Source of the DNA: Obrimoposthia wandeli
Lineage: Eukaryota
NCBI GenBank assembly: GCA_977020255.1
Contig: CDROCS010001315.1
Span: 62,001-126,000, forward strand
DNA length: 64,000 nucleotides
Direction of reading: 5' to 3'
Shown here: in pieces, positions 8 to 62,170 of the stretch
Position numbering within the stretch: position 1 is the stretch's first letter
Layout of the letters: each line of letters begins with the position of its first letter
Program-made: the position numbers and the translations under genes
The notes under the pieces: model-generated
What the model saw: the letters and a program-made list of their open reading frames with translations, nothing else
Told to the model about the DNA's origin: nothing
Databases searched by the model: none

Positions 8-361
8 ATGATCATACACCAACAGAACCAAACAATAACATCACTTACAGAAAAGATCGAAAAACTTACAACGACCTATACACAACACACCACCAACAGA
101 CACAGATCACCATCACTAAATTACGACAACAGACAACAACATACCACCAACATATACAGATCACCATCACCATATTACGACAATAAACGACAATACACTA
201 ATAACAGATACAGATCACCCTCACCATACAATAACGATAAACAACCCAATCCAAACTACTGCTATTACCACAATACATACGACATCAAAGCCATCAAATG
301 CACACCTTGCCATACCAAAAAAACGGCTAAAATCAACAGTAAACGCACCAATTACCGTTGA
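8..361 (+). pseudogene. gag: Gag C-terminus with CHCC-type zinc knuckle and three RSPS-x-Y repeats
   Basis: NYCYYHNTYDIKAIKCTPC resembles the C-x2-H-x9-C-x3-C gag motif of CsRn1-clade Gypsy elements. Confidence 0.75.
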
Positions 362-380
362 TTGCTCCAACATATTCACG

Positions 381-2945
381 GTGCACTCAAAAATCAACAA
401 CATTCATTTCCTCATAGACACTGGCTCTTCAGTATATATAATCCCATACACCAGCATGCCAACACCCAGACAACACACTACACCTACCACACTCATGGCA
501 GCGTACCACACACCAATAAAAACTTTCGGTACGACTAACCTAACAATAACCTTAGACAACATCCCCTACAAATAGGATTTTGTCATAGCAGACATAATAC
601 AGCCAATCATCGGAGCTGACTTTCTAGCCAATTTCAACCTAATCATCGACTGCAAAAATAAAAACTTATACGAAACAAAACACCAACACATACAAACCTC
701 CACACCCATACCACAAACTGGACAACACATAACCAAAAAGTATTAAGCACAATATATACAAAAACAGACGCGACCAAAACACTACAACCAACTATACCAC
801 CCCAAAAACAAAACAACTTCACTCACAAAATAATTACAAACGGACGACCATGCCACGCCAAAGTAATGCAACTTCCATCAAATAAGCTAGCAGCCGCGAA
901 AGACACATTCACTAAGTTAGAAAAAAAGGCATTATTCAAAAATCCAACTCACCTTGGTCATCAGCTCTCATGATGCAACAACAAAAAAATCAAACATGGA
1001 GATGCTGCGGAGACTACCGAATGTTGAATGCTATGACAACACCAGACTCGTATCCACTTCCACTCATAAGAGACATCATCACACGCCTAATTCACGCAAC
1101 AATCTTCATTAAAATAGATCTCACATCAGCCTACCACAACATTCCTATACACACAGATGACATCAACAAAACAGCAATCATTACACCATTCGGACTCTAT
1201 GAATACATCAAAATGCCATTCGGTCTAAAAAATTCCACCGCCACATTCCAAAGGTTCATGGATCACATATTCACAAACACAAACATTGTAAAGTACATAG
1301 ACGACATCCTAATAGGGAGCAACAACCACGCCGATCACATCAAAGACATAGAAAAAGTAAAGACATACTAAAAATCACAACCTCGAGATCAACACCAAAA
1401 ATTGCCTTTATCACCAAGTACAAATAGAGTTCCTAGGACATACCATATCACATAACCAAATCAAACCTCTATCAAACAAGACAAACACGATAAACAACAT
1501 GCCAATACCAACCACAGTCAAATAAATCAGAAGCTTCCTAGGAATGATGAATTTTTACCACAGACACATACTAAACTGCGCAGGAACACTAGCCCCTCTA
1601 CACGACTTAATCAAAAACACGGACAAACAAGCAAAGATCACACTAACCGACATCGACATAAAACATTTCAACACAGCTAAACAAGCACTCACAGATGTTA
1701 CAACCTTAAATTTCCCAATTCCAAACGCGCCACTTACGCTCACCACAGATGCTTCAAATTACGCAATGGGAACAGTTTTAAACCAAACAACAGAAACCAC
1801 ACTACAACCAAATGGAATTTTTCTCAAAGAAACTGAAAATACACCAGACCAAATACTCAACATACGATCAAGAATTACTGGCCATATACGAGGCCATAAA
1901 ACATTTAGAAACGCATCTAGAAGGCAACACTTTCACAATTTACACAGATCATAAACCCTTCTACACATCATCACCATGAAAACACCCTCACCACGCCAAA
2001 TCAGACAGATCAACTACATCTCGCAATTCAATTGTACTCTCAAACACATCGCAGGAGACACAAACATCGTAGCAAACACACTCTCACGCATACCACAAAA
2101 CAACAACATCATAACGCATAAATATTTTCTCATACGCAGACATCAAACACAAACAAGACATGTCCGAATTCACACGAGAGAACTTACATCTCACAAAAAC
2201 AAACGACATATGGTACGAAACCACTACTCCCGATTTAACTAGAGTCATATTCACAAAACCACTACGCACGACATGCATAAAACACATCCATGATTTCCAT
2301 CATCCCGGCATAAAAGCAACATTTTACATAATCAAACAAACTTACATATGGCCATGCATGTGCAAAGACATCCAAACATTCGTTAAACAATGCATCAAAT
2401 GCAACAACAACAAATAACAAAAACATTACAAAACAATTCCACTCACCGTCACTAGTAAAAACGCATTCCACACAATTCAAATTGATTTCGTCGGACCACT
2501 ACCTTCAAACAACTCGTTCACACATCTCCTGACAATAATAGACAACAACACAAGCTGGTTTTCCGCCATACCCATCAAAGACACATCATCCGCATATATA
2601 TGGAACAAAATATACAAACATTGGTTCACCACATACGGTTTCCATTCAAAAATAATCACAGATCAGGGACAAATCATCAGCAAAACATTCAATGACTGCT
2701 GCAACAATAAAAACATCAAACACACAACCACGATCACATACAACCCACAATCAAATGGTAAAATAGAACGACTACACGAATGAAACCCAAATCTATCACA
2801 ACACACTCACAAGCATACATAAAAGTACACAACCATCACTCACTAGACCCAAAATACGAGGTTCCATACGCCATCATCCGACACAATATCAACAATACAA
2901 CGCTCATTAACAGAAACCAAAAGTCAACGCTCATCAATAACTTGA
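381..2945 (+). pseudogene. pol: Pol polyprotein (PR-RT-RH-IN), broken into several ORFs
   Basis: ORFs 381-575 (DTG protease), 970-1371 (RT), 1544-2100 (RNase H) and 2160-2945 (integrase) lie in Gypsy order. Confidence 0.9.
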
Positions 2946-8450: not shown

Positions 8451-10332
8451 AAATTAATTTGCAAACAGATGTTATTCAAAGTTACTGAAAGTTTTGTTTA
8501 TAAATTAGAATACTAAATCTTTAATTATATTGTTTTATATGTAAATAAATAAAATATTTGATTATCAACTTAGTATTCCTATTTATTATTCGACTTACTA
8601 AAATATTAAAAAATATCTTGTGACAACAAATAAAATTAATTATCGATTGTATGAATTAATTCAAGTGTAAATGTAAATTAAAGCAAGTACGAATGTCAAG
8701 TACAAGTATGAATGAACATTAGTAAAAATATTAATGAATTTGAATGATAGTTTGAATAAATGAGAATTATAATGAATGCAAGTATGAATGCACGTGAATG
8801 CAAATACAAGTAAGACTCTTAGCAAGTGAATGTAAAATTGCAAGTATGTACTAGCTAATTATTAAATGAATACTATCAATCAATGAAGATTATGTAACAA
8901 TATGATGAAAAATATAATAATGAGGATGTGAATTTTCCCATTTTATTTTTCATATATTTTACTTTCATATACTCTAAGTTAACAGTTTATACACACTTAT
9001 ACAAATAATTAATTAAAATTTCTTATCTCGTTTGATAACATTCCTTAATTTGAATATTTTAAAATATTTAGATAAATTTGAATTCTTTATTTTCAAATAA
9101 CTTGGTTATAAATATATATTCATAAATATAATTTAAAAATTATCATTATTCGTTTCTCATTTTAAATATTTTAAAATATATTTATATATACAAATTTTAG
9201 TAAATTAACGCAACAAAACAATTTTATTCTCTGTGTATCGAATATTGCAAAATTGTTTCCAAATACATGAAAATAATAGCAAACAAACTGAAGGCTTTGT
9301 CAATAAATTATAATGCCGAATCTTTAATCAAATTGTTTAAATAAAACAAATAGTTCAAACATATTAGATAATCAACTTAATACCTACATATTTTATTAAA
9401 ATTTCTAAATAATTTTTAAAATGTATTTCATAAAATATTGAAATTAAGAGTCTCGAGTGAATACGAGTTAATAAGAGTTGAACAGTATGGTTTAAAATGA
9501 TACTTAGTGATAACAAGTGTAAGTAAAAAAAAGAAGGTAGTATTATCGAATGTGTAAAACGTTATAGAGTATGACTGAAAGTGTAACTGAGGACGTTAAT
9601 TAGTATAATAATAATCTTCACAACAACAACAAAAATACATATATATATATATATATATTTAAATTACTTGATATTTTTGCCACTGTCTTTTGAATATTCA
9701 ATTTATTTCTACAAAATTCATTTTATATATTAAACAATATTTCTTTATCACATTATTATAGTTTTTATCAAGTGATTTTTTCTTTAAACTATAATAATAT
9801 ATTTAATTATAAAGTTAGTAGCTGTATCACGCCGACTGTATTTAATCTAAATCTCAAATATAAGTTACTATTAAGTTTATTCTTTCAAATATTAAAAGTT
9901 ATTGCATGTTATTTAATTTTGTTTTGTTTACTAGACATTCAAAAATTACTTTTAAACAAAAACATATTTAGCATATATTTAATTTATTATGTTGTAAACA
10001 GTTGACTTTTTACTCCTACTTTATTCTACTCCCAATTATTTCAAGCAAGATGTTGACAAGGTGATGAAGAGCTTCATTTCGAAAAATCTTATAGACGAAA
10101 ATATTTTGAGACTCATCGAAGCAACATATCTGCTTCTGGAGGAGCATGTAAGAAGAATGATTTACAACAAGGCTATCGATGGTCTCATTTTGGGTTACAA
10201 TAAGAGAGCACGTCCAAGAAGAGCTTTTTCTGGGAGAATAGTTTTTGTATTGTTTGATGTTAGATGTATCATAATAAAATATTTTAAGTAACTTTGTCTA
10301 TTAAATATTATCACAACACTAATATATTTAAT

Positions 10333-18493: not shown

Positions 18494-19555
18494 TTACATA
18501 TTCTTATTAAGAAAATATAATTCATTTTCATTAATATTAAATTCCATTATATTAATTATATAATATGTATTATTCAATTGAATTTGAATTGACTTAATGC
18601 AATTTGTTGATGTTACAGGAAGAGAAGCTATATTAATTGTTGATGAAGATTGGAGAAAAAGGGAATTATTTTTTACTAAAGATATTTCAGTATCTTTAAA
18701 ACCGAGTAAAATATATCTAGGATTGTATGCAAGATTACCAATCTTGACTGAAAAGGTTGAACCAACTCCTATATCGAGTGTTGTACAAGTTCCATTTAGA
18801 TAATCTACATGTAAAGATTTATTTGAATTTAGCATTTCAAGAAGTTTTATCTCAGCTCTAGGATTTAGAGTATATTCAGGAATATGAAGTTCAAATGTTG
18901 ATAGTTTATGTTTTGCTTCAGTTCCTGCTGCTTCAAAATAAATTAGATTATTATCAACTTGCCTATTACAAATTAGTTCCAAAAAAACATTATGAATTAT
19001 GCTGTTATAATTTTGAAGAAATCCAAAAATATGTTTAAGTTTAAAAACTCCTTTAAATTTATCTTTATTATTATATAAAGATGTTCTTATTGCATAACTT
19101 GTATTTGCTGTATCTCCTTTCTTTACATCTGGAATCTATCCAGTCATTTCTCCACATTCTTTTTTATAGTCATCATCTGTAAGTGAAAATTTATGAAGTT
19201 TAGTTTAGAAGAATAAATTCCTGGGTTGAGTACATATTCAACTTCTGTTGAACCAATTTTAAGGCTCATGTTTGATAAAAGAGTTCTAAAGAAATTATTT
19301 TCAAGTGTTATTTTTCATTAACTTCCATGTCTTCTAGTTCAATTTTATAGTAAAGTTTAGCATTGCAAATATCTAGAGGATTGAAAGTTTGTAGAGATTT
19401 AAATACAATATCTTCTGATTTATTAAGATTTTAAATTGAACTTGTTGTTGAAGAAATACTCAAGACATCAATGTTCTTTATATCGTGTGAAAATGTTTAT
19501 TGTGATCGAGATTCATTTTAGATTTATCTAAAATTGAAACATTTGCACTTTCCAT
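18494..19555 (-). pseudogene. Major capsid protein of a second, different Polinton lineage
   Basis: NNFFRTLLSNMSLKIGSTEVE...NPG, FKLKHIFGFLQNYNSII, KLSTFELHIPEYTLNPRAEIKLL, NPRYILLGF, SIQIQLN fit the double-jelly-roll capsid pattern. It does not align by eye with the 43144 capsid. Confidence 0.65.
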
Positions 19556-22385: not shown

Positions 22386-24391
22386 TTATTTTTTATAAAT
22401 TATATTTTTAAAAATCTTTACAAAGTCATCATTGGGATCATCCTCATCAAAATATCTCCGACAGCGTTTTATTGGAGAAAGCCGTACTGGCTCCTTCTTC
22501 TTTGGCCAGCCAGGTTTCTTTTTCGGTTGTTGTGCAGTAATTGCCATTTCCTGAGGTTTTGGCAGTAGTTGCCGCAACATTTTGGGAGGAGGTGCATCCT
22601 GCTGCCCTCGCAAATCTGGAAGCATAGCCGGTGTCTCCAGTTCCACCAGGAATTCGTTCAATTCAGCTTCATCCCAGGCCCTCTTCAAGTTCTGGCTTGT
22701 TGTTGGACGAGGAGAAGCAGTCTCCCAAGCCCTAGCCAAATTTTGGTTTATACTCAATGAAACCGGTGATGTCTCCTGCAGGCGTCGTTGACTGGGAGGC
22801 GGACTAATCTCGATCGGAGAGACTGGGATCCTCTCGTACAGAATTGGCCTGTAATCCACTGGATATGGGAGAATCTCCTGCCGTCTAATCACCACCTCAG
22901 AAGAATGGTGAATTGTGGTGCAACATTTTCTCAAGCGCTTCGTCTTCTTCACCTCTGCTCGCTTCGTCCGTTTCTTGGGGAAAGGAGTAATTTCCCCCCA
23001 AGTCTACTCAATTATCCAGACGCGTTCCTGTAAAAGAAACCATTAATAAAATTATAAATAAAATTGATTTATTTAAAAAATAATTAAATATCTAAAAAAT
23101 TACCTCAATAATCTGATACGGAAGTTTTTCCTGCCACTCTATCGAGAACTTTGTCGATTTGAGCAAACACGATTTCGCCTTATTAAGGCGCCTCGTCTTC
23201 CGCACAGCATCCCGCTTCGTTCGTTTCTGTGGGAAAGGAGAAATTTTGCCCCACGTCTCCCAAGTTAATTGTATTGGTTCCTGCAACAAAAAAATCAATA
23301 AAATTTAAACATATAAATAATTTACCTCAATGACAGGCAGGTTATGCTGTTTTATCAACTTGGCCTTCTTCTGATGGACCGTGTGGGTTTTGACTCGATG
23401 GTGTCAAAGTTTCTTAACCGCCTCTTGCTTCCTATCGACGGGTAGTCTGAGAGTTGCCTCCTCCCAAATTTCCTCCACCAATTCGGCTTCCTATGTGAAT
23501 AATTAAAATTATTATCTAATTTATAATAATTTACCTCAATTTTATCCGGAGTCGGTAAGTATCGCTGCTCACTCCTTGGATCCTCCTGGCTACATTGACT
23601 CACCAAGTACTGCGGTTCAATCAGCCTCTCCGCCGTGGTCAAAGACGGTGCCAAATCCAGTTGAAGTTTCTAAAAATGAAATTAAAATACATTTAAAATA
23701 AATTAATAGACTAATCTCATTCGTCGCCTTTATTCTCCTAACAGGACGTATCAGAGATTGTGGCCTTCTGAACGGATCAGGTACTGTATTGTCGGCTATC
23801 GGAGTTGAAGTTGCAGAGGGAGTGAGATCATCCCAATCGTCGGTGAACAGGTGCCACTTGTCCTCGTCCAATTGTGCAACTATCGACTCGTTGGCTCCTG
23901 GGAAATAGCTTCTCGATGAAAAGCTCCTCGTCTGAGTCTGGTGCGAGTACTATCTCCGGCTTAAACAGCAGGATCAATTTCCAGGAGCGTTTGATTGCTG
24001 CCTCAAAATTTTCGAAGAGATTGGATCTCCTTGCTGCTACTGCTGAAGTTGCTGGACGAGCAGCTTCTGGGTTCTGACGGGGATTACAGTTTTCCCAATT
24101 CTCAATTGAATCCTGACTAGTCAGGTCAATATATTGGGATCTCTGTACCCCACCTCTCACTTCCATTGGTTCTTCTCTCGGAGTTGAGCTGGCCAATGGG
24201 GCGTCTTTTTTTAACAGCTCCGTTCTTGCTGCTGCTTCTCCTTCGTCTCCTTTGCTCACCACCGACGAGTCTTGACTAAGTAAGTCAATGTACTGCGCCG
24301 GTGGTGGCATTCGCTGCTGTACTGGAGAGAGATCCCTATACAGTTGAACCTCCATATATTCGTCTAGGCCAACGTTGTTGAAAATAGGCAT
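22386..24391 (-). pseudogene. Five-exon accessory gene X with tandemly duplicated exons
   Basis: Introns at 23670-23715 (donor mutated GT>AT), 23491-23534, 23281-23325 and 23028-23103. All are phase 0 after a GAG codon. Internal exons are 135, 165 and 177 nt, all multiples of 3. Two stops and two frameshifts. Confidence 0.7.
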
Positions 24392-24834
24392 GTCTGGATA
24401 ATCCAAAATTTTCAATCCCAATATCATAACTTTACTACTGAAAAATATATTTACACATAGCGGTTTGAACTTCAAATAACTGAGAGCAGGAAATATTTCT
24501 GGTTCAAACATGCATTCTTCTTTCATTTTCTCTGCAGTTTTAAAAATATTTATCTGTTTCCCAAGATTAGCCGAAATCGTGATTGATTGTATTGCAGTGA
24601 TTTGAATTCCAAATTGTAATTCGAGCTCAAGCACAGGTATCTTGCATCCCATAACACGACAATTTCCTAAAAGAATTCAATATGAAAATTAAAAAAAAAC
24701 TAACCTGTGGGAAAAATAACAACTGTGCAATTGTCTAACCTTTTCACATATTGTGTCGGCTTCCATTCATTGAATGGTAAGTACGAAACATCATCTTCTA
24801 TTCTACCTTTATAATTTATATTTACGAGTTTCAT
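24392..24834 (-). CDS. TBP-like protein (two exons), truncated after the last beta strand and fused in frame to gene X
   Basis: MKLVNINYKG...TVVIFPTG|NCRVMGCK...FEPEIFPALSYLKFKPLCVNIFFSSKVMILGLK. A 38-nt GT-AG intron lies at 24667-24704, and the frame is open after splicing. Confidence 0.85.
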
Positions 24835-26299: not shown

Positions 26300-26643
26300 A
26301 ATATGGATGCCTGTGGCCTTCTCTAATCACATTGGTATAAAATAATTGGTATCAAAATTGAGTAAAAATATACTTTATGAATTTCTAATTTATCGTAATA
26401 TGACACGAGACATACATGTGTAGTTGTCATAGTGAGAGGTAGATGGATAAAATGAAAGAAAAATACTGTAGTGCCAGAGGGAATTATTTTTTGTAGTTAT
26501 TTTCGTGTCCGAGAATAGAGCCCGCCCCGAAATTTCACTCCAGAAACATGCACGAAATATCACTCCACACACATGCATGGTTTTAAAGGACAGTGGTACC
26601 TCCCAGCGGGAGGAATGGATTAGACCGGACACATCCACCTACT
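26300..26643 (-). repeat. Polinton terminal/subterminal sequence of copy 1
   Basis: Ends in GGATTAGACCGGACACATCCACCTACT, the exact reverse complement of 36928-36954. Confidence 0.85.
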
Positions 26644-26930
26644 TAAACTCACAGCTTTAATTGACACAGGTTCAAGCATAACAGTCTTAGATGAATCTTA
26701 CTTAAAAACTCATCAAAAATTACTTCTTCTTAAAGAAAATAGTCAAGTCACTGTAGCAAACTGTCAATCCGTAAAAATAATAGTAAAAATAGAATGACTT
26801 TTTAAAATAGGAAATAAATTCATAAAAATACCTATAAGAATCATGAAAAATTGTCCTTGCCAAATGATCATAGGTATAGAGACATTAAGAATATTAGGAA
26901 ATAATTTCCATTTTGATTTCGAGAAAAATC
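26644..26930 (+). pseudogene. Retrotransposon aspartic protease remnant abutting the Polinton terminus
   Basis: KLTALIDTGSSITVLDESY...VTVAN...MIIGIETLRILG fits the D-T-G and ILG-x-D protease pattern. Confidence 0.7.
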
Positions 26931-36927: not shown

Positions 36928-37200
36928 AGTAGGTGGATGTGTCCGGTCTAATCCACACCCCCCTCTTGTCCTTTAAAACCGTGCATGTGTGTGGAGTGAA
37001 ATTTCGTGTAGGTGTGTGGAGTGAAATTTCGTGTATGTGTGTCTCCATCCCGCCCAAAGGGGGAAGGAAGGGGAGGGGTACCCACCCCCCACCATATTTG
37101 TTAAACTTTTACCATGAATCTCAAAAGTGGTTAGAGAAGACCACGAGAATCCATATTGACCCCGGCGGCTTTTCGCAGACCAGATTTCAAATATTACTAC
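36928..37200 (+). repeat. Left terminal repeat region with a 25-bp tandem unit and G-rich tract
   Basis: GTGTGTGGAGTGAAATTTCGTGTA occurs at 36987 and 37012. A GGGGGAAGGAAGGGGAGGGG tract lies at 37059-37078. Confidence 0.8.
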
Positions 37201-37336
37201 TATTTAGATTAATAAATTACTACATGTTAAATATCTATGTCAGTTTTAAAATTTAGAGTAGAAAAATCGGTCAGATCTATATAATTTAGAGGAGAAAAAA
37301 CAAAATACGATACAAAATTATTTTTCAAAATATTTA

Positions 37337-37740
37337 TTAAACATAAAACAACATATTGGCTTCACTCAAAGTCCAGAGAGGCTGCATTTTCCCGTCATCA
37401 GCAAAATATCCATTCAGACGTATTGAGATATTCCATAGTTCTTCATCTAGAATTGGAGCAATCAAATATCCTAGATCATCTTTAAAATCCAGACTGGGAT
37501 CAGTTTCAAGCTCGAAACAATTTCCTTCATATACATAATCAGGAATGTAAAATCCCAAATATTTTTCAGTTGATCAAAATCAGTTGTTGTTAAAATTTCG
37601 ATGAGATATTTTTTCTCCACTTTTGATATTTTCACAGGATTCATAATTCGTATAATTTGATGCCTCTTTAATATATTACATAGTTTTCCTTTTGAAATTC
37701 TTTCTGGATAATAAAAATTTGCTACACATCTCTTATCCAT
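37337..37740 (-). pseudogene. Gene A, ~134 aa, putative OB-fold ssDNA-binding protein; 1-nt deletion near 37560
   Basis: MDKRCVANFYYPER...LKNI(L)GFYIPDY...WNISIRLNGYFADDGKMQPLWTLSEA. The frame is restored by comparison with copy 1. Confidence 0.6.
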
Positions 37741-37822
37741 TCTAAAATAAGGAAACTGATTAAAAACAATGTTTATAAAAAATACACATAAGATACAAAT
37801 AAGATACAAATAAAACTGATTA

Positions 37823-38350
37823 TTAAATGAAAGAAACATAGTAAAACCGATTACAATTTATTACACACAAAAGATAAAACATAGAAATATGAGCACGTTC
37901 AATTTTCCACATAAGCAACTTAGTTCCCATTTCATCTTTCTTGTAACCATAAAGTCGAATTGTTACAGTCCATTGCTTCTTTTTTGGAAACGCATCAATA
38001 TCAACATATCTTCCATAGTCATCTAGAAATGCTTCATCGGCTCCTCGGATATAAAATTCGTTCTTATTGAAAGTAAAATTTGGAACTGCCTTTTCTATTT
38101 TCTGTTTAAGATATTGAAAATCAGGTTTTTGAATACCTGATAGATAGTAGCTGAACTTTCTTCTTTCAATTGTCACGGGTATTACTAAAGCAATCAGTTG
38201 AGCCTTCTTCAAGAATCTGACTTTGTATTTGAAATATTGTTTCACTTCTTCATACATATTCTTATCCGATTCTTCAAACATTTCTTCGTCATCGCTTAAT
38301 ACCCGTTGGCTATCATCCATTGTTGATAATTGTCTTTGATATGAATGCAT
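37823..38350 (-). CDS. Gene B, 175 aa intact ORF, putative OB-fold ssDNA-binding protein
   Basis: Open frame conserved with copy 1. C-terminal WTVTIRLYGYKK...LMWKIERA parallels gene A. The function is inferred only. Confidence 0.7.
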   Translation of the reverse strand: MHSYQRQLSTMDDSQRVLSDDEEMFEESDKNMYEEVKQYFKYKVRFLKKAQLIALVIPVTIERRKFSYYLSGIQKPDFQYLKQKIEKAVPNFTFNKNEFYIRGADEAFLDDYGRYVDIDAFPKKKQWTVTIRLYGYKKDEMGTKLLMWKIERAHISMFYLLCVINCNRFYYVSFI

Positions 38351-38598
38351 TTACTGTGATTTGTCCTCCAACGGCGCATTCTTTTATACTAATTTCTAAC
38401 AAAGACATGAATCTCATTGGTTAATATAACTAAAGCATGAATTTGATTGGACTAAATCTATATTAAAAATCAAAATTGATTGGAAGAAATATATCATCCA
38501 ATTATAATAGGTTTGCAAGATAATTACAAGAAACGTGCAATAAAAAAGCAGGTTCAGACATATATAAAGAAGATTTTACAGAATACAATTTCAGTCTA

Positions 38599-39100
38599 AT
38601 GAAACTCGTAAATATAAATTATAAAGGTAGAACAGAAGATGATGTTTCGTACTTACCATTCAATGAATGGAAGCCGAGACAATATGTAGAAAGGTTTGAC
38701 AATTCCACAGTTGTTATTTTTCCTACAGGTTAGTTTTTTATTTTATTTTCATATTTAATTCTTTAGGAAATTGTCGTGTTATGGGATGCAAAATACCAAT
38801 GCTTGGGTTCAATTTACCATTTGGAATTCAAATCACTGCAATACAATCAATCACGATTTCGGCTAATCTCGGGAAACAGATAAATCTTTTTAAAACTGCA
38901 GAGAAAATGAAAGAAGATGCATGTTTGAACCAGAAATTTTTCCTGCTCTCAGTTATTTGAAGTTTAAACCGCTATGTGTAAATATATTTTCCAGTGGTAA
39001 AGTTATGATATTGGGATTGAAAAATTTTGATTATCCAGACATAGTTGATTTGATTTTAGAAAATATATCTTATTACATCTTGTTAACCTTTTTCTATAAA
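38599..39100 (+). pseudogene. TBP-like gene (two exons), 1-nt deletion near 38915
   Basis: A 38-nt intron at 38729-38766 joins IFPTG|NCRVMGCK. The second repeat FEPEIFPALSYLKFKPLCVNIFSSGKVMILGLK resembles TBP YEPELFPGLIYRM.KP..VLLIFVSGKVVLTGAK. Confidence 0.88.
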
Positions 39101-39436
39101 CAAACCCGTTTAAACTTATTGTTTCAAATTAATAATACTATAAATAGAGACAATGAAGTGGATCGGCTTGCCGATGAATTATTTTCTGGAAAATTAGGGG
39201 TAAAGAAATTTTATCAGAATTAAAAAATAATGATATAACAAGAGATAACATTGAAATATTGGTTAGATCACACGTTATTCGAGAATTTAGAAATCGTATA
39301 CAAATAAATAAAATTATAGTCAAATATTCATTAATTAATTTTTGTATTTCATCTACAATAGCTCTAACATTGTACATTTCAATAAGGAAACTTCTATTAT
39401 AATATAAACAATATTAAAAATGAAAGAGTATATGCA

Positions 39437-40084
39437 ATGGAGCTAAATAATAATGCTGTATTTCAAATAGTTGGCCCAAGTGGAAGTGGAAAGACACATT
39501 TCGTCTGTAAATTGTTGCAAAATGAATCTATTTTCAAATCTAGTTTCAAAAATATTTATTGGCATCATGGTGGAGGGAGGGAAAGCGGGTTAACCAAAAC
39601 AGAAGTTTGCAAGTTTAAGGGTATAAAATTTATTGAAGGATTTGATGCAAATTGGTGTGAAAGATTGAAAAAAGAAGATGTAATAATAATTGATGATTTG
39701 TATGAGGAGGCTAACAAGGAATCGGACTTTAATAATTTATTTACAAAGATTGCAAGACATCGTGAAGTAACAGTTATATTTATCACTCAAAATCTGTTTC
39801 ACCAAGGAGGTCACCATAGAACAAGAAATCTTAATGTACATTACTTAGTTTTATTTAAAAATCCTAGAGATCAAACAGTTGTTGATTTTGTGGCCAGACA
39901 GGCATTTCCTCAAAATAAGAACTTTCTAGTTGATTCATTCCACGATGCTGCTAAACAAGCACATGGGTATATATTTATTGACTTTACACAAGCTTGCCCA
40001 GATGATTTACGTGTTTTAACAGACATATTTAATTCTAAGGGAGTAACTGTTTATAAACAAATAGAGAACAATTATAAAAAATAA
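39437..40084 (+). CDS. Polinton packaging ATPase (A32/FtsK-like), intact 215 aa
   Basis: Walker A GPSGSGKT, Walker B IIIDD, ARH, ITQNLF, RNLNVHYLVLFKNPRD, HGYIFIDF. Confidence 0.95.
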   Translation: MELNNNAVFQIVGPSGSGKTHFVCKLLQNESIFKSSFKNIYWHHGGGRESGLTKTEVCKFKGIKFIEGFDANWCERLKKEDVIIIDDLYEEANKESDFNNLFTKIARHREVTVIFITQNLFHQGGHHRTRNLNVHYLVLFKNPRDQTVVDFVARQAFPQNKNFLVDSFHDAAKQAHGYIFIDFTQACPDDLRVLTDIFNSKGVTVYKQIENNYKK

Positions 40085-40091
40085 ATTCGCA

Positions 40092-40232
40092 ATGCCTTTT
40101 ACAAAGTTGATAGTAAAACGTAAAGTAAAATCTAAGAAATCAAAAAAAAGAATCATTAAGAAAAAAGAAGTGAAAAAATTAATCAAATCTGTAGTTAAAA
40201 ATAAAAAAAAACTTAAATGGCTTCGAATATAA
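40092..40232 (+). CDS. 46-aa lysine-rich micro-ORF, candidate DNA-condensing core protein
   Basis: MPFTKLIVKRKVKSKKSKKRIIKKKEVKKLIKSVVKNKKKLKWLRI*, with 22 of 46 residues K/R. It sits between the ATPase and the next virion-like ORF. Confidence 0.45.
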   Translation: MPFTKLIVKRKVKSKKSKKRIIKKKEVKKLIKSVVKNKKKLKWLRI

Positions 40233-40263
40233 ACAATATTTAAATTAAACCTTTTTTATTAAA

Positions 40264-40594
40264 ATGAAGAAAATACATAGAAGCATACCCTATTTTAAAG
40301 CTTTAGTCAAAGCCTCTTCTAATAAGAGAATGATTATTCTTAAAGCATTTCCATCCTTTGTTGTAGATGATTTATTGGAAGTTTTGTATAATATAGTTTT
40401 GGGTCGAGTAAAAGTTGGAAATCGGAAAAATATATTAAAGAAATATATAAAAACTCTTCTAGATATTGTTAATGTAAAAAGTAACAAAAAGGAAACGAAA
40501 TATTATTCTTAAACATAATGGTGGTTTCATAGGGGCTGTTATTCCAGTTGTTGCTTCAATTATCAGTAGTATTATAGCTGCGACACGTTCATAA
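40264..40594 (+). pseudogene. Small conserved-type Polinton ORF ending in GG|F hydrophobic helix; frameshift near 40490
   Basis: LLEVLYNIVLGRV...KHNGG|FIGAVIPVVASIISSIIAATRS*. Confidence 0.6.
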
Positions 40595-40680
40595 ACAATT
40601 ATTTCTAAAATCAGCTAAAGATATGGGTGCTAGCCCTTCTTTACCTAAACTTAAATTTTCTTTCTATTCAAATTGTTGTA

Positions 40681-41709
40681 ATGGAGAAGATATGGTTCAA
40701 TCCAAAAGATCCAATTGGCTACACAGGAGTTTCAAAATTAGCAAAAAGAACAAAACAAAATTACAAGAAAACGCAGAAATGGCTGAGCGACCAGTTAGCC
40801 TACAGTCTGAACAAGCCGATGCGAAGAAGGTTTCCAACTAGAGCTTACAAAACCAGCGGTCCTAATAATTTATGGCAAATGGATTTGATGGAGATGATCC
40901 TATATTCTTCCATTAATAAGGGATATCGATATATTTTAACATGTATTGATGTATTTAGCAGGTTTGCTCGTGCAATTCCAGTTAAAGCAAAGTCTTCAAT
41001 AGCTATGCTTGAAGCCATTAAAGAAATATTAAAAGAGGACATTCCACAAAATGTGCAAACTGATTTAGTAAAAAAAATTTATAATAAGCAAGTTCAATCA
41101 TTATTTAAATAAAATAATATAAATCATTACTCTGTGTTTTCACAATACAAAGCAGCAGTAGTAGAAAGATTTAATCGTACTCTAAGAGATCGAATAAAAA
41201 TGTATTTCACAAAAGAAGGAAATAAAAAATGGATCCAAGTTTTACCTAAAATAATACATGCATATAATCACTCTGAACATAGAGGTCTCAAGGGAATGAG
41301 ACCTGTTGATGTTACTAATAAAAGCTCTATGGACATTTGGATGAACAGGAATAAAAAAGAAAAAATTAAAAAAGCTAAATATAAGAAAAACGAATATGTT
41401 CGAATTTCGAAAATTAGCTCTACTCCATTTATTTAAAACTTTGATCAGAATTGGAGCGATGAAATATTTTGTATAAGTAAAATTGATCAAAAGAGTAATC
41501 CAATAATGTATACTATTAAAGATGCTGACAATAATATCGTTCACGGTAAATTTTACGAGCAAGAATTACAAGTAATATCAAATAAACCTAGCGTTTTCCG
41601 TATTCAAAAAATATTAAAATCTAAGGGTACAGGTAAACATAAACAATACTTTGTTAAATGGCATGGTTATTCAGATTCAACTTGGATATCAGCATCTAAT
41701 ATAATATGA
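40681..41709 (+). pseudogene. Polinton rve-type integrase with chromo-like C-terminus; two premature stops
   Basis: DDE motifs WQMDL, QTD and VERFNRTL. Stops at 41110 and 41434. Confidence 0.93.
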
Positions 41710-42793
41710 ATTCTATGTATATGGTTTTACCAATTAACGGATAATAAAGTCAAAAGACCAGGGAATCCGTTCGTTAAAAAGTGTTCCAGATAATGACGCT
41801 AGTAGCTTTATTATCGATTGGGAAAATTCTATAAATCTCCAAGGAGAATGGGAAGCGGCTTTAACAGAATTTTCTTTTTTATTATTCTCCAATTACTATC
41901 AAAAAAAACTCACATATTTCGTTACAAAAGAAGTTGATCATGAAAAAACAACTGAAGTTGTGATCGGGTTTGATAGTAAAGGACAATTATATTACAATTG
42001 TATAGATAAAGAAGTGAAAGTAATATTTGAAAATAACAAAGTCAGATTTAAAAATCGATTAAAATTTCTTCAAGTTATTAAAATTAATTTTGAATCTAAA
42101 AAAGAAGCTCTTCAATTCAGTTTTGATAGTGAACAAACAGTAGCTCGTAATAAACGGGATATTATCTCATCTAATTCGGTTAGAAATGTTCCTGGTAGAG
42201 TAGCAAAAGTGTTGTTACTTGAAACGAGACCAAAGACTGTAGTGGAACTGAAAACGTTTTCAAAAGATTATAAAATAGATAGTGAAGTGAATTTCTGTAA
42301 ATTAATACAGAAGGAATGTAGTGAATATTTAGATAAATGTGTAACATTAAATGGTAAATTAACGTTTACAGTAAAGAGCAATATAAAACGAGTTTCATTT
42401 GATGATAAACTCGCTAAAAACCTTGGTTTAAACAGAAATACCTTTGAAACCCATACAATAAAAACCATAAAAGCTAAAAATAAGGCAAAACCTTTAAATG
42501 CTGTTAATCATTTATATATTTATACTAATTTAATAGAACCAACGCTTGTTGGAGGACAATGAGTTCCACTTTTGAGAACAATATGGATATCTAAAAATGA
42601 AACTAAAGATGGTGACGCTGTCGGTATGTGTATAGATCAACCAATGTATCTTCCAGTTTCTCTCTTTTCTATAAACAATATTGAAGTAAATATTAGAGAT
42701 GATTCCCGACAACTAATATATTTCACGTACGGGGCCAAGACAAGTTTAACAATACATTTAAGAAAACAAAATGACGAATCCAGCAATAATTGA
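41706..42793 (+). pseudogene. Minor capsid (penton-like) protein, disrupted
   Basis: Near-identical to 16401-17345, with an insertion at 41743-41785, a frameshift and a stop at 42560. Confidence 0.88.
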
Positions 42794-43106
42794 AGCTTAT
42801 AGTCAAAGCCAACAAGGTGGAGAATTACCATATTTTGTTGGTAAACAATACGGATCTGGCTGGCTTAGAACATTAGGTAGATTTGCCTTTCCTCTTTTAA
42901 AGAGACTCGGGCGATTTATATCAAAATTAGGAAAGGATTACCTTTCATGAAAGGACAACAAACTAATACCAACTTTTAAGAAGCATGCGCTTGATGAACT
43001 TGATAATGTTTTACCTGAAGTTGCTAATTTGATTAGAAAACGTAAATCAAATATAAGCCAAGGAGGTAGTGGATTTAAAAGTAAAAAGAAGAAAAAATTA
43101 ATATAA
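42771..43106 (+). pseudogene. Core-protein-like (pVII-like) ORF with GG/GxG protease-site motifs
   Basis: MTNPAIIEAYSQSQQGGELPYFVGKQYGSGWLRTLGRFAFPLLKRLG...QGGSGFKSKKKKKLI*. Frameshift near 42945. Confidence 0.7.
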
Positions 43107-43143
43107 ACAAACGTAAGAATGTTGAAGGAACAATATTTGCAAA

Positions 43144-44366
43144 ATGAGTTGCGCCAAAACTGAATTGTGTATTTTTGATAAACCACTTCCACAAGTAGTT
43201 GTAGATAATGCTTCCTTTGAAGAAATATTCCTAGTTAACTCAGTTTCAGGAACCACTTTAACCGATTTAGAATTTAATATTAATGGTTCCAATAGCGAGT
43301 ATTTAGATTTGAATGATACTTTGCTTTATGTTCAAATAAAAGTATTAAATCGGGATGGTACTAATTTAGATGAAAATACCGATGTAACACCTGTAAATTA
43401 TCTCTTTAATTCTTTATTTAATGATGCCATTGTTACTCTTAATAATGTCAAAATTGAAGGTGGAAATTCTTCCTATGCTCATAAAGCTTTGATTGAAAGT
43501 CTTTTGAATTATAGTACTGATACTCAAAATACTAATTTGGCAACCATTGGTTATGATAAAACAGTTGCAACTCGCAAAGAATGGATTGCAGGTTCTAAAG
43601 CTTACGAAATGTGTGGGTCTTTATGATTGAATTTCTTTGAACAACCAAAATATTTAAATCCCGGTGTTAATGTACATCTTCGTTTGAAATCTAATAAATG
43701 GAAATTTCTTTGATAAGCACAGACGTTCTAAAACCTAGACTTGATATTTTGGATGCAAAATTCTATGTTCGAAGAGTTAAAACCAAGCAATAAGTTTTAA
43801 TGGCACATAATATAGGAATGGAAAAAAACAATGCTTGTTATCTATCATATTAGAGAAACTAAACTTATATCTTATTCTTTAGGTACGGGTACACAAGGTT
43901 TTAATAAGGATCAAATTTTTGGTGATGTAAGATTACCGAAATTCATTTTAATTTCTTTTTCAAAAACTGCAAAGTTTCTAGGAAATTATACGACAGATAC
44001 AACTCAATTTGACAATCTTAATGTTGGTTCAGTGACACTTTCAAGAAATACTGATTATCGCGAAACATATAAAACAGATTTCGAAGGTAACGCTTATGCT
44101 TTGGCTTATACGCAATCTATTATTCGGAATTTGGGTCAACTAGATAAAAATATAAACAATGGTATTTCTTTAAAAGCATCTGCCCGTTCTTCACATTTGT
44201 TTTGGCACCAGACTTTGATATAAACCAATGTCAACTACCAAAGGATGGAAATTTACGACTAGAAATTAAGTTCAATGCAGCTTTAACAAATCCTACTACG
44301 GTGCTTATTTACGGAGTGTTTGATTCCGAAATACAAATCAATAAAAACAGAACTGTCATATTATAG
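43144..44366 (+). pseudogene. Polinton major capsid (double jelly-roll, hexon-like) protein
   Basis: KTELCIFDKPLPQVVV, LDLNDTLLYV, PVNYLFNSLF, YAHKALIESLLNYS, GNLRLEIKF, YGVFDSEIQI. Stop at 43624 and frameshifts. Confidence 0.9.
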
Positions 44367-44367
44367 A

Positions 44368-44741
44368 ATGAAGTAAGACATTTTTTAAATTTATATTTAT
44401 TAATTTTTATTTAGTTCAAAACAAGTACAAGAATCAGCAGAGAAGGTCTTGGGTGATAAATTTAATGGAGTTTATCCTATTGATATGATTCCATTTTTTC
44501 AATCTGGAGGTTACATTATCAATACTCATACTTCGAATTTACCAGGAGAACATTGGATAGCTATTTATGTTAGAGAGTGGACAATACATGTATTTGATCC
44601 ACTTGCAATGTATTATCCACACAAACTTGTTTCAACTATTCAAAAAGGACGAAGAAGAGTATTTTACAACAAAATAAGGATCCTGCGACGAGAAACTGTG
44701 GACATTTATGTATTTTATGGTTATCGTTGCAAAACAATTAG
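44368..44741 (+). pseudogene. Adenain-like cysteine protease, two exons; frameshift before the catalytic Cys
   Basis: ATG AA|42-nt intron 44373-44414|T gives MNSKQV...FNGVYPID. Triad motifs IINTH..NLPGEHW, FDP and, in the shifted frame, RNCGHLC. Confidence 0.88.
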
Positions 44742-45016
44742 TGTGTTATAAAAATAAAAATTTTAAATGTTTTATTTTGAAATATGTTTTAAATCTCTAA
44801 AAATATAAGGGTAAAATAATAAAAGACATAAGACAATTTTTTTTAATACATTTATTAATCACAACATCACAATGAGATATGTCAGCAAAGATAAGGCATA
44901 ATAAATAAGGTCCATCCTAAAAAAGTATTGAAATAACAAATAAGTTAGAGTCTAGGTGCCATAGGGATCTAAAATTTTAAAAAACTAAACTAAAAAAATC
45001 AAAAAATGAAAACCGT

Positions 45017-46790
45017 TTAAATTCTGAAGTGTCCATAAGCCAGGCTAGCGTTCTTTTTTACCCAAAAGCGCTTGTCGTCATTACTACTCAAAGCGATTTT
45101 GGTTGATTTATGGGAATACAGTTGATGGGCTCTTGAAATAAATCTAGTTTGCTCAACGCTTTCAAGACACCCAGTATCATAAACTTTCCGGTAGGCCTCA
45201 TGTGTAAGATTGTTTCTTCCCACACCCTTTGCTCTCATTGAACATGTATTATTAGATGCATGTAAACTGTAGCATTTAGGGCGTAGGAAAATACAATCAT
45301 CATACGAAACCTGTCCCTCGCTTTCATCCTTAAATTTCCCGATAATGTCCTTTAAACTCATAGAGTGTAGAGGATGGTTAGCGAGATATTTATGGGTATC
45401 TAGTAAGTTGTCCCTAAACATTGCTGGTAATAATTGATTATTTAAACTAACATTCCTACATTCTAAAAAGAAAGAGTTAGTGTCCCCAGCTGCGATTTTA
45501 ATCTCACAATTAAATTCTTGTCGGTATTTCTCCAATTCTATGTATTGAAGCTCATACATTCTGAGTTTAGAAATGTCTAAAACCGTTTGACCTATATAAC
45601 TCGGTCGATCGAGACAAATACTCTGTTTTCCTATTAACACTGCTACCAAGTCATCTGCAATTGTAAAACTACGCTTGAAGTTTTACTGGCTAGTATATGT
45701 TGTTAGTTTACACTCACCATTGCAAAACCGTAGACAAATACGTTTCCGCAAGTCCTCTACAGTTTTTCCAAAGAGACTATTACTTTTTAACTTGTAAATA
45801 TCTCGATCGAATTTGCTAGTGGCTAAATTACGTTTTCTTGAATTCTTCTCAATATAGTCTTTAAACCCAAAGTTTTGACTGAAGCTTATAGCACGATGAA
45901 TTCGAGTAACTTTCGCTCCCAACTTTAAGTAGAATTGAAGAAGCCGCCAATGCACAACATAATTCAACTTGTCTTCATGGGTTAACAATAATTTCTTAAC
46001 CTTTGAATTAGGTGGACATTGATAAACAGGCGCTACTGGAAGATCATCTAATTTATAATGCACATTGGGAGGGATTTTTATGTCCACCTCAACCAAATAG
46101 CCGACGTCGGATGAAACTGTATCAACAGTAGCCAAATCTGTCATCAACTTATTCAACTGATCCACATCATAAACCCACTTAAAGTTGGCATGAGGTTAGA
46201 GGTTGAGTAAGCGCCCACCCATACAAATTATTAATATCGATGTACAGAATCTCCGTGGATTGATTTTTGACATCTTGATGTTTGTTGACAAAAGTCATTC
46301 CACCGCGTATACCATAATCATACATTTGATAGATCGCAGGATCTTGCAGTAACTCGATATTAATTTTAAGAGTTTTTATTGCTGTTGCCCATGAAAGACC
46401 AGATAAACTAAAGAAAGGCATGGGATCTAGCCCATCTTCTGCTAAAGACTGTACACGAAAGGACTCAAAAATATCAGCTAAAAGATAAATGTCTAACTTC
46501 ATATAATAAAGCATATATTCGAGAAGATTTCGACAATTATTCACCCAAAATGTACGGGGCTCATTATAGTCTTGAAGACTTACACCCTCAAATTCAGCTA
46601 TGGGTGGGATTTCAGTTGTATTTTCTAAATCTGCGAAAGTTTTCGCAAATTTATACGGAAAAAATCCCCTTATCGTTAACCGAAGCTGGGAACACTGACT
46701 GTGTAATTGGCCATGCATTTAAAGATGCCGTTAAATTTTTTAAAGACCCGCTCAAAAACTGCAGAGAATCTTTTTAGTTGTGCTGTCTGG
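45017..46790 (-). pseudogene. Protein-primed family B DNA polymerase, N-terminal half missing, disrupted
   Basis: KDSLQFL, DIYLLADIFESFR, GIRGG, YIDINNLYGWAL, KLKSNSLFGKT, GDTNS (catalytic DTDS changed to DTNS), RPKCYS, AKGV. Confidence 0.93.
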
Positions 46791-60600: not shown

Positions 60601-60879
60601 ATTTGAAAAACGAAAAATGTGTTTATACATATAGTTATATAATTGAATATTATTGGTTGAAAATTCTGATGTGTTATATGTAACTATATAAAGTGATGAT
60701 TTCATAAATGATTACTATTACAACAAAAATAATCAATAATAATTAAAAAGATACAGTTAACATAAGTTATATTCATTTACAAATCCAATACAAAAAAACA
60801 GTACAATATGTTCTAAAAATGAAAGATTATACTTTAGTTATATTTTCAACTGGCATTTTTTATAGACATTAACATTTTT

Positions 60880-62170
60880 AATAGTCTTTGGGTGTATGTA
60901 GGATAATATGTTGTATGCCAATAATGTATATTAATAGCATGCAAAATGATATTCGCAAATTATATTGTTGAATCTTAATACAAATATCAATTTATATAAA
61001 TTGATTGTTAAAATGAAAAGAAATTGTATGTTTGAACCCGAACTGTTTCCTGCTCTTAGAATATTAAAGTATAATTCGTTGTGTATTATGTATCATATAA
61101 TCTTGGCATTAGAGACTTGCAGTTTCATTTTCAAGTAGAATCGATTGTATATTTTATTATTATATTTTTATAAACAAACTCCCTTTGAATTTATTTTTAC
61201 TAGGCATACACTAATAGACAATATTATACATCACAGAGCTGTAAATGGATTTTTAGTTAAGATAAAAGTGAATTATTCTAAAATAAAAGTTAAATATCTT
61301 AAATATAAATATGAGTTCAATAGATTAATGTTGATGTGTCTAAATTTTAATTGAGATAATTGTGAAGAAAATTTAGCTAAAGTAGGATTTTTGTTAAACA
61401 TGAAGATGGCTCATCTAATAAAGTTACATGTATATTTTGTCATGGTGTATTACTAGATTATGAATTGAATCTATAACCTTTGAAATAACATAAGAAATAT
61501 TTTCCAACATTACCATTCCATTCAAACTAAATTTATCATTTCATTCAATGAAAAATTGTAAATAAAATTAATTTTGATACCTTTTTAAAAAATCAAAGAA
61601 AACTGTTGAAAATGGTTGTGAATTACCCGTTCATTGGAATCACGTGAACGTTGATGATGATATAGCTAAGAAATCGAAAACCATACGTATTAGAGAATAT
61701 CCAATAACTGAAAAAGAAAATGGTTGTAGAATTGATACTAGAAGTGTTTCAATGATGAAAAGTATTTTAGAAAGATAGAATAAGATCAGTTTTAAAATAT
61801 AGTTTAACTCAAAATTGAGATTATAAAACGATATTTGACATGGTTCATGACTTTACTAATTCGAAAGTAGATGTAGCGGACTCATATGTATATATATTTT
61901 CATACTTATTAGAAGATTCTGAGTGTGAAGTATCTTTAAGTGAAAGTATTGAAGTAGCATTTCTGATTTGTGGAAACATGATACTTGTTCAAATTGTTCT
62001 AAAATGTTTTAAAAAACATGTTCTATATGCAGATGTTTGATTGATCAAAAGGTTTGACTTTAAAACATGAAAAAATTAAATTATACATTTGTAATCCAAA
62101 ATAATACCAATGCTTTAATAGGCCGTGCATTTGATGAATTTATGACTGGTAAAGTAAAGAGTATATAATA
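60880..62170 (+). mobile_element. Old Polinton-related remnant carrying a third TBP-like fragment and a RING-finger fragment
   Basis: MKRNCMFEPELFPALRILKYNSLC at ~61013-61084. TTTTATAAACAAAC matches 39090. A RING-like string lies at 61924-62033. Confidence 0.6.
61924..62033 (+). pseudogene. C3HC4 RING-finger remnant
   Basis: CEVSLSESIEVAFLICG-(frameshift)-HDTCSNCSKMF*KTCSICR. The second Cys codon is TCT, one change from TGT. Confidence 0.6.

Follow-up and report, generated by a model that had tools for sequence, protein, structure and literature searches.

A reduced, intron-containing TATA-binding-protein homolog encoded by a Polinton of Obrimoposthia wandeli, and a TATAAACA box upstream of packaging-ATPase and putative core and capsid genes

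The stretch of DNA analysed here (hereafter the window) comprises 64,000 nucleotides of the genome of Obrimoposthia wandeli (contig CDROCS010001315.1, positions 62,001 to 126,000 of the forward strand) and holds a Polinton that extends from its left terminal inverted repeat (TIR) at 36928 to 46771, where it is cut within the gene for the protein-primed DNA polymerase B (pPolB). A copy elsewhere in the genome (L082-L083), 95.6% identical over 9.9 kb, is 11.9 kb long and has both TIRs, AGTAG termini and ATAATA on both flanks, i.e. a 6-bp target-site duplication; the copy in the window retains the left TIR only. The gene order is two SSB-like genes on the minus strand, a gene related to the TATA-binding protein (TBP), a small ORF, the ATPase, a small basic ORF and a putative core gene (core1), followed by the integrase, a putative minor capsid gene, a second putative core gene (core2), a putative major capsid protein (MCP) gene and the protease, with pPolB on the opposite strand (Table 1). 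The marks of a Polinton, namely pPolB, an rve integrase, an A32-like ATPase and an adenain protease, are present, and the TBP-carrying Polinton is very abundant in this genome. Parts of it also occur as large inverted duplications with arms of 2-3 kb (L074-L075, L078-L079, L088-L089, L142-L143), which include head-to-head TBP-ATPase-integrase blocks. The window further contains LTR-retrotransposon fragments (120-2783, plus strand; matches to retroviral protease, RT and RNase H).

Several of these gene labels need qualification. The protease was recognized in locus L051 (Peptidase_C5, E 1.1e-7) and tied to the window ORF at 44404 by tblastn. The core1 product is presumably a core protein, a label taken from its position and resemblance. 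The MCP candidate is named for synteny and size, with one weak DJR-like match (E 0.039, in 1 of 4 members) and no match to the PDB by sequence; the minor capsid candidates, named on the same grounds, gave no jelly-roll match. In the case of orfA, the predicted model of its relative L037 (pLDDT 93.7) has a fold resembling T7 gp2.5, the phage Enc34 SSB and ASFV CP312R, with structural matches (VIA) at Z 8.1, 7.5 and 7.2 (rmsd 2.9, 2.9 and 3.7 over 102, 104 and 111 residues) and the next row at a Z of only 5.3; an Atlas search with orfA gave scores that were all under 0.9.

Table 1. Features of the TBP-carrying Polinton and the three TBP-like gene copies in the window
Feature	Position	Strand	Basis or remark
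Left TIR, begins AGTAG	36928..37004	.	Comparison with the L082-L083 copy
orfB, paralog of orfA	37474..37857	-	phmmer E 3.2e-8
TATAAACA box 5' of orfB	37770-37777	-	
orfA, predicted ssDNA-binding protein of T7 gp2.5 / ASFV CP312R type	37826..38350	-	Fold of relative
CCAAT boxes (four) within the 248-nt spacer that separates the divergent SSB-like and TBP-like genes	38416..38502	.	Sequence
Canonical TATA box TATATAAA, 38 nt 5' of the TBP-like ATG	38561..38568	+	Sequence
Copy 2, exon 1: 43 codons + 1 nt, most of the N-lobe	38599..38728	+	ATG at 38599; aligns to the N-terminus of intron-free P0001-P0006
Copy 2, intron: 38 nt, GT-AG, phase 1, splits a Gly codon	38729..38766	+	
Copy 2, exon 2: last N-lobe strand, linker and C-lobe	38767..39099	+	Frame shifted by a 1-nt deletion
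TATAAACA box before the small ORF 3' of the TBP-like gene	39095..39102	+	
TATAAACA box, 34 nt 5' of the packaging ATPase start	39403..39410	+	
A32-like packaging ATPase	39437..40081	+	Pfam Pox_A32 E 1.3e-6
TATAAACA box within the terminal Y-K-Q codons of the ATPase, before the small basic ORF	40052-40059	+	
TATAAACA box, 36 nt 5' of the putative core-protein gene core1	40228..40235	+	
Retroviral-type integrase, interrupted in the window copy	40681..41436	+	Pfam rve E 2.3e-8
TATAAACA box, 42 nt 5' of the putative MCP gene	43102..43109	+	
Putative MCP gene, interrupted in the window copy	start 43144	+	Synteny, size
pPolB, 3' part; element truncated there	45017..46771	-	Pfam DNA_pol_B_2 E 5e-8
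Copy 1 of the TBP-like gene	24390..24834	-	Intron 24704-24667; C-terminus replaced by foreign sequence
Copy 3 of the TBP-like gene, decayed, other family of the same gene	about 60740-61120	+	

An earlier reading of the window, made from the sequence only, had counted three copies of the TBP-like gene and overlooked that all three are broken. Copy 2, which lies in the Polinton described above, had been presented as a full spliced protein of about 165 aa; a 1-nt deletion near 38935 puts its exon 2 in two frames, so that this copy is unable to yield the full protein, and the commonest open form elsewhere in the genome has 153 codons (43 + 1 + 109). Copy 1 belongs to an element with its TIR at 26546-26645 and stops at 24390, the last helix being swapped for unrelated sequence. 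Of the positions equivalent to the DNA-intercalating Phe residues of TBP, three had been said to look retained, and three are indeed kept; at its end copy 1 has FSSK in place of SSGK. The place of this end is taken by GC-richer low-complexity ORFs without a Pfam match (22386-24389, minus strand), and 'YIDLLSQDS' ORFs like these also occur in L132-L133. Copy 3 is the same kind of gene, as had been stated, but it is of another family and decayed (stops, deletions, GC at the donor position), and it has near-identical duplicates on the same contig. Against the Pfam TBP profile (PF00352, curated cut-off 22.9 bits), copy 1 scores 33.2 bits (E 4.8e-8) and the distal frame of copy 2 29.8 bits (E 5.4e-7), both above the cut-off, and copy 3 remains under it with 15.2 bits (E 0.019); exon 2 matches TBPs in the PDB with a best E of 8e-11. 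In open copies the stop codon of the TBP-like gene falls within the next TATAAACA box.

The proposed intron of copy 2, preceded by an exon 1 of 130 nt, and its counterpart of equal length and site in copy 1 both stand. A genome search with exon 2 listed at least 150 matches among 30,586 candidates, a figure that does not give the copy number. Among the best 30 loci, 28 could be parsed; all of their introns are GT..AG and 34-44 nt long, with a length independent of the frame, and exon 1 measures 130 nt in 26 of the 28. Both exons are open in 25 of the best 30 loci, a figure that is biased because the loci were chosen by similarity to exon 2. Environmental homologs that are 50-53% identical to exon 2 run through the junction uninterrupted and have the same start. 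By comparison with these homologs the intron is real, its splicing being predicted, and the sequences of these intron-free relatives bear out the junction as well as the short N-lobe (short in them too, and recognized as such in the earlier reading) as family traits. An extra upstream coding exon that would complete the N-lobe was considered and is ruled out, because the intron-free homologs begin at the same position.

Introns at the same site recur in other families. A second family in the host genome has one of unrelated sequence (39 nt in 2 of 4 loci parsed), family C (L118-L123) has another of unrelated sequence (29-41 nt in 5 of 5 loci parsed), and further cases are one locus from the search with copy 3 (28 nt) and 1 of 29 environmental loci (L048, 40 nt). 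The family C intron consists almost entirely of a TAT/TAC triplet repeat, its length varying from 29 to 41 nt. Neither of the host's two canonical TBP genes is interrupted by an intron at the shared site. When contigs of four runs (of unspecified kind, from one sample) were aligned to a family-A locus, the intron was not skipped at any of 15 of the 231 joints, which speaks neither for nor against splicing.

The protein is predicted to have the whole two-lobed TBP fold without the helices of the N-lobe. The AlphaFold2 model of the intron-free homolog P0002, built with 76 sequences, has a pLDDT of 96.7 and contains both β-sheets; its N-lobe is all-beta, residues 1-85 being free of helices, and the two helices of the C-lobe are present. 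All 44 PDB matches of this model at E≤0.001 contain TBP, and it superimposes on yeast TBP with Z 13.3 and an rmsd of 2.8 A over 152 aligned residues. The helices H1 and H2 of the canonical N-lobe, with their basic regulator surface, are absent from the model, and the linkers are 9 and 12 residues shorter than those of the host TBP (family median against host: 38 versus 47 for the span N69 to F116, 21 versus 33 for G125 to Q158; we take the residue numbers to be those of yeast TBP, and host residues were read from L092).

The same 76 homologs show which residues are kept and which are replaced. Kept are E186 (75), E188 (74), F190 (76), F207 (76) and F116 (75), as well as N69, P191 and K211; replaced are V122 by R (75), T124 by M (76), V71 by N (72), L205 by N (76), N159 by S (74) and I194 by R (71), as well as V203 by C and T215. 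The position of F99 is occupied by Pro, in an alignment register that is inferred. Three of the four intercalating Phe residues are therefore kept while several minor-groove residues are replaced, and the acidic C-lobe stirrup for TFIIB is kept as well (E in 75/76 and in 74/76). According to the accessible part of Ravarani et al. (PMC7221094), TFIIB binding sits on two C-lobe Glu residues of TBP, and TFIIA, TAF1, Brf, BTAF1/Mot1 and NC2 bind the N-lobe, partly at helix 2. With the C-lobe Glu residues kept and the N-lobe helices gone, the TBP-like protein would thus retain the TFIIB surface and be devoid of the regulator surface. Host TFIIB itself was found only in part, in one exon.

A profile search recovered 391 proteins at E≤1e-15, and 53 clusters at 50% identity and E≤1e-30; among the 120 proteins listed of these 391, one has NCBI as its source. 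The TBP-like family is thus large and almost absent from annotated collections, partly because the intron hides the gene in genomic copies. The gene has a fixed place in the element, with an SSB-like gene on one side and the ATPase on the other in 10 of 10 family-A neighbourhoods. The 29 environmental loci of the family are mostly 1-5 kb long, and 19 of them have a match to another gene of the element (ATPase in 8, SSB-like in 12); one, L044, contains a complete gene module. Related environmental elements also carry a ubiquitin-conjugating E2 gene and a dual-specificity phosphatase (L044:225-719, minus strand, and L033:4008-4316, plus strand). In L044 there is in addition an unnamed ORF of 154 aa, accompanied by a TATAAACA box (9591-10052, plus strand), and minor-capsid-like genes are present as two tandem paralogs. 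Scans of IMG/VR gave one cellular-like TBP locus, and further scans of this set with a larger alignment, cellular TBP, MCP and ATPase gave nothing.

In a careful tree (35 rows and 180 columns; the bootstrap had not fully settled, and genomic copies were represented by exon 2 alone) the family is split from cellular TBPs and from host TBP/TRF with support 100/99, and a quick tree of 144 rows has the same split at 99. An AU test rejected a tree in which three element proteins were constrained to group with the two host TBPs (p-AU 6e-51). The rows were picked by similarity to the family profile, and TBPs of giant viruses are poorly sampled in them. As judged from these alignments, the family is a separate and old clade, and a recent capture from host TBP is rejected. 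The host has two canonical TBP genes, which lie head to head in L092/L093, and intron-free divergent TBP paralogs (L094:1336-2028, L095:1306-2028; 35-38% identical to a cellular TBP) that group with the cellular TBPs; about 1 kb downstream of the L095 paralog there are pPolB and integrase fragments, perhaps by chance.

Pairs of environmental relatives have dN/dS values of 0.13-0.34 in 7 of 9 cases; of the remaining two, one has a value of 1.14 (2 synonymous and 9 nonsynonymous changes) and one is without synonymous change. Among the genomic copies, pN/pS in exon 1 (small counts) is 0.87 when computed from singletons and 0.33 from shared variants; the corresponding values for exon 2 are 0.29 and 0.43. 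By the dN/dS values the relatives are under purifying selection. The main claim of the sequence-only reading, i.e. a Polinton-encoded, intron-containing, two-lobed TBP homolog, is upheld by the Pfam and PDB matches, the predicted fold, the gene order and a tree that sets it apart from host TBP; we conclude that it is a real, conserved and under-annotated Polinton gene.

Some longer relatives (in alignment A5: P0102, P0104, P0107, P0109, P0111, P0114, P0118 and others) have N-lobe segments of helix length and share the R and M substitutions (21/21) and the N substitution (20/21). This suggests, on the evidence of the alignment, that the DNA face was altered before the helices of the N-lobe were lost.

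The promoters of the element provide a second line of evidence. We compared nine TBP-carrying elements, three of them host families and six environmental, with ATPases 64-80% identical to that of L044. TATAAACA precedes 17 of 18 starts in the classes ATPase (8/8), core1 (4/5) and MCP (5/5), which were chosen after the motif had been seen, at a distance of -33 to -48 with one exception at -84. Counted in -70..-10 only, it is present in 16 of 18 windows; 1000 shuffles gave a mean of 0.32 (max 3), and 3% of random windows have it. It also supplies the top 7-mer, which exceeds the best shuffled one (max 8). Because the nine elements are related, the promoter windows are not independent. Positions 1-8 are invariant in 17/17, the flanks vary, the sequence never reads GTAAACA, and the box is oriented on the strand of the gene cluster. 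In family A, the box precedes the ATPase in 23 of 23 loci that reach its start.

Within 90 nt of other starts the box is absent, namely from integrase (0/6), minor capsid (0/6), core2 (0/4) and protease (0/2), one of the two protease starts being probably false; 3 of 6 minor capsid windows carry CATAAACAA, several of the starts without a box abut the preceding stop codon, and a box lies about 100 nt 5' of core2 in family A and in L044. Where the box overlaps coding sequence, the codons fit it: the last Y-K-Q of the ATPase is encoded as TAT AAA CAA in 7/7 (0.48 expected per gene; the genes are related).

The region upstream of the TBP-like gene itself contains TATAAACA in 1 of 21 cases, a canonical TATA box in 8 of 21 and TTGTTTWA in 10 of 21. 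Directly 5' of the ATG, nearly all copies have TTT(C/T)AG (38590-38598 in the window), which from its sequence could be an initiator or a splice or trans-splice acceptor in the 5' UTR; the initiator TCAGT occurs there in a minority of copies only. The spacer with the CCAAT boxes may be a putative host-driven early promoter. Across families, however, CCAAT boxes do not separate early from late (TBP windows 3/7, late windows 5/18), so that this reading is limited to some families.

For comparison we used a Polinton family of the same genome that is without a TBP, where TATAAACA precedes 0 of 27 starts; this control is a single distant family, with no match to the TBP profile in 5 of 5 20-kb regions. 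A fragment of the MCP of this second, unrelated family lies in the window (18497-19135, minus strand; loci L130-L139; Pfam DJR-like, E 3e-11), and its 5 copies have no TBP-like gene within 10 kb on each side. A close TBP-less Polinton was found neither in IMG/VR nor in the genome contigs, which gave one short ATPase contig. Among host actin and histone windows (29, one false H2A match having been dropped from 30), the box in sense orientation occurs in none; 9 of 11 actin windows carry a canonical TATA box. Among the host H3/H2B windows, 13 of 18 carry TGTTTA, the reverse of the core TAAACA, between about -36 and -68, and 4 of these have the full reversed box. In the histone loci (L187-L210) it mostly takes the form TTTGTTTA[A/T], always in one orientation and mostly without a canonical TATA box, and it may be a core-promoter or cell-cycle element of the host; many environmental TBP-like genes have a similar word upstream. 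Taken together, and against the reading preferred below, TGTTTA in the histone windows and TTGTTTWA upstream of TBP-like genes imply that a host factor for the word may exist.

The box departs from a canonical TATA box by the C at position 7. In Table 5 of PMC10005294, transcription from TATATACA relative to TATATATA amounts to <7% in Drosophila, the values for tobacco and HeLa being >7% and ~50%, and a structure of TBP bound to the C(-25) variant exists (PDB 1qn3). The accessible part of the same paper places the kinks that TBP makes in the box at steps 1-2 and 7-8. By analogy with these systems, C at position 7 is weak for host TBP, not dead.

The reading that we prefer, with a probability of roughly 0.6, is that the TBP-like protein is the Polinton's own reduced TBP, a late-gene factor that would read TATAAACA in front of the genes for the packaging ATPase and the core and capsid proteins, and would bring in host TFIIB and Pol II. 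Host factors would initially transcribe the divergent SSB and TBP pair early, from the CCAAT/canonical-TATA promoter; the reduced TBP would then read TATAAACA, its kept acidic stirrup would bind host TFIIB, and the packaging and virion genes would be driven. Loss of the N-lobe helices would remove the docking surface for TFIIA, TAF1, Mot1/BTAF1 and NC2. That the protein reads TATAAACA we infer because the N-lobe carries new invariant residues and the box is off-consensus at position 7. The N-lobe of TBP contacts the 3' half of the TATA box, so protein and box would depart from the norm at the same end. If so, the TBP-like protein would prefer TATAAACA over TATAAAAG. We extend this only tentatively, and at somewhat less than even odds, to the statement that a large Polinton clade runs a two-stage transcription cascade by means of one 150-residue, helix-stripped TBP of altered specificity that takes TATAAACA as its private late box, recruits TFIIB and escapes TFIID, Mot1 and NC2.

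The earlier reading had offered two possibilities, an own promoter-recognition factor or a decoy for host TBP. The former obtains indirect support from the box together with the remodelled DNA face as they appear in the sequences. A decoy or repressor, which would occupy TATA-like boxes or titrate TFIIB and so damp host transcription or time the element's genes, would agree with a TFIIB stirrup that is almost invariant while the surface for activating partners is lost, and with the fact that the ORFs of the elements read encode neither a TFIIB nor a Pol II-binding extension. We nevertheless regard it as quite improbable, because the surface bound by host regulators is the very part lost: a decoy for TAF1, Mot1 or NC2 would keep the N-lobe helices, and it would need neither a conserved remodelled DNA face nor a matching private box. 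It is also conceivable, if unlikely, that TATAAACA is read by host proteins (TBP, a paralog, or a forkhead/HMG-type factor) and that the element's protein is an unspecific general initiation helper, resisting for instance eviction by Mot1/NC2. In favour of this, there are two host TBPs and, besides these, divergent paralogs; host histone genes are often preceded by the reversed core word (13/18); and the forkhead and Sox consensus sequences are matched by ATAAACA and AACAAT, respectively. Host TBP is about half active on a position-7 C in HeLa extract (PMC10005294), which counts against our preferred reading. Viral TBPs have been proposed, in the accessible part of PMC7221094, to evade host regulators by divergence of the N-lobe. 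Against a host reader stand a box of exactly 8 bp that starts with TATA, is always in sense, has TATA-like spacing and is never GTAAACA, its absence in sense from all 29 host windows, and the new DNA-face residues that are invariant in the family and argue for a changed specificity.

Two further explanations fare worse. The fold might have taken on a role in replication or packaging, where, along with the neighbouring SSB, it would bend DNA at termini or origins or bind ssDNA; an adjacent SSB-like gene is indeed seen in the host families as well as in 12 of the 29 environmental loci, and a divergent Giardia TBP binds ssDNA (accessible part of PMC12209930), but a kept acidic TFIIB stirrup, three kept Phe residues and a box that lies before genes and not in the TIR examined make this a very improbable account. 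That all three window copies are broken would fit a recently captured host TBP/TRF pseudogene, carried passively. This idea has next to no probability left and is refuted by the selection among the relatives, the tree split and the AU test, which rejects a single clade of host TBP and element proteins; the host TBP genes are, moreover, without an intron at the shared site, and both exons are open in most of the best loci (the choice by similarity biasing that count).

Compared with cellular TBP (PF00352; PDB 7o4i_O, 1cdw, 1mp9), the element protein shares the two-lobed saddle over its whole length (Z about 13), the C-lobe with both helices, the EPE(L/I)FP stirrup and three of the four intercalating Phe residues; it differs in its length of about 150 aa, its helix-free N-lobe, the many replaced DNA-facing residues and its separate clade. 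The reading that the protein is the element's own late-gene factor has a functional parallel in the vTBPs of beta/gamma-herpesviruses (KSHV ORF24, EBV BcRF1, HCMV UL87), which pair with TATT late promoters in a virus that depends on Pol II (accessible part of PMC7498053). Both are virus-type TBPs with a non-canonical TATA-like late box, a pairing shown there and inferred here. The herpesvirus vTBP, however, forms one domain within a large protein that contains a Pol II-binding part of its own and has five partner proteins, and the word it reads is TATT, whereas the element encodes a stand-alone mini-TBP with the TFIIB stirrup kept and the word TATAAACA. The element protein consists of the TBP core only, with no Pol II-binding N-terminal domain, no viral partners were identified, and its structural match to BcRF1 is weak (E 5e-3); it would, by analogy, work like a herpes vTBP and is not a member of that family. 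In the case of Nucleocytoviricota and mirusviruses, which often carry their own polymerase, the TBPs (ASFV B263R; Heterosigma akashiwo virus TBP) share the viral TBP fold, with BFVD matches down to E 1.9e-8. Their N-lobe signature residues are likewise not conserved, but they often come with an own TFIIB (both from the accessible part of PMC7221094), their identity to the element protein is 20% or less, and none of the carriers was seen as a 12-kb integrating element.

The element agrees with adintoviruses, Polintons and Mavericks (Starrett et al. 2021, PMC8502044, as far as its accessible parts go) in TIRs, target-site duplication, pPolB, integrase, ATPase, protease and capsid-type genes. An SSDBP is labelled in some Fig. 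S2 maps of that paper, the text layer of which has no TBP label for animal adintoviruses; 'TBP' stands as an abbreviation in the legend of Fig. 5, in the non-animal section on MELD viruses, and the accessible text describes no such family, reduced fold, intron or promoter word. The figure and the GenBank files may show a member of the TBP-like family. With subscription papers and Repbase outside the scope, this legend label is all that turned up in the literature searched on TBP in Polinton-like elements: the accessible parts of 10.64898/2026.06.19.733378, PMC10748475, PMC12220804 and PMC11161782 have no passage on TBP or TATA on Polintons, the TBP in PMC10675990 belongs, in its accessible text, to mirusvirus-like elements, and the accessible supplements of PMC7221094 do not contain the terms Polinton, Maverick or adinto.

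How Polintons/Mavericks transcribe their capsid genes, and whether they go through a true viral cycle, is an open question that a dedicated TBP with a matching word addresses. With one small protein and one 8-bp box it is accessible to direct biochemical tests, and TATAAACA would be a sequence mark for late genes among the many unnamed ORFs of these elements. In this family one can also see, in a natural setting, how far TBP can be reduced and in what way its specificity can shift. If our main reading is true, a Pol II-dependent DNA virus that serves its late genes with a TBP of its own would be known for the second time, the first being the beta/gamma-herpesviruses. The two-stage cascade, if true, would provide a natural minimal TBP of altered specificity as well as evidence for a regulated early-late virus cycle in the host nucleus.
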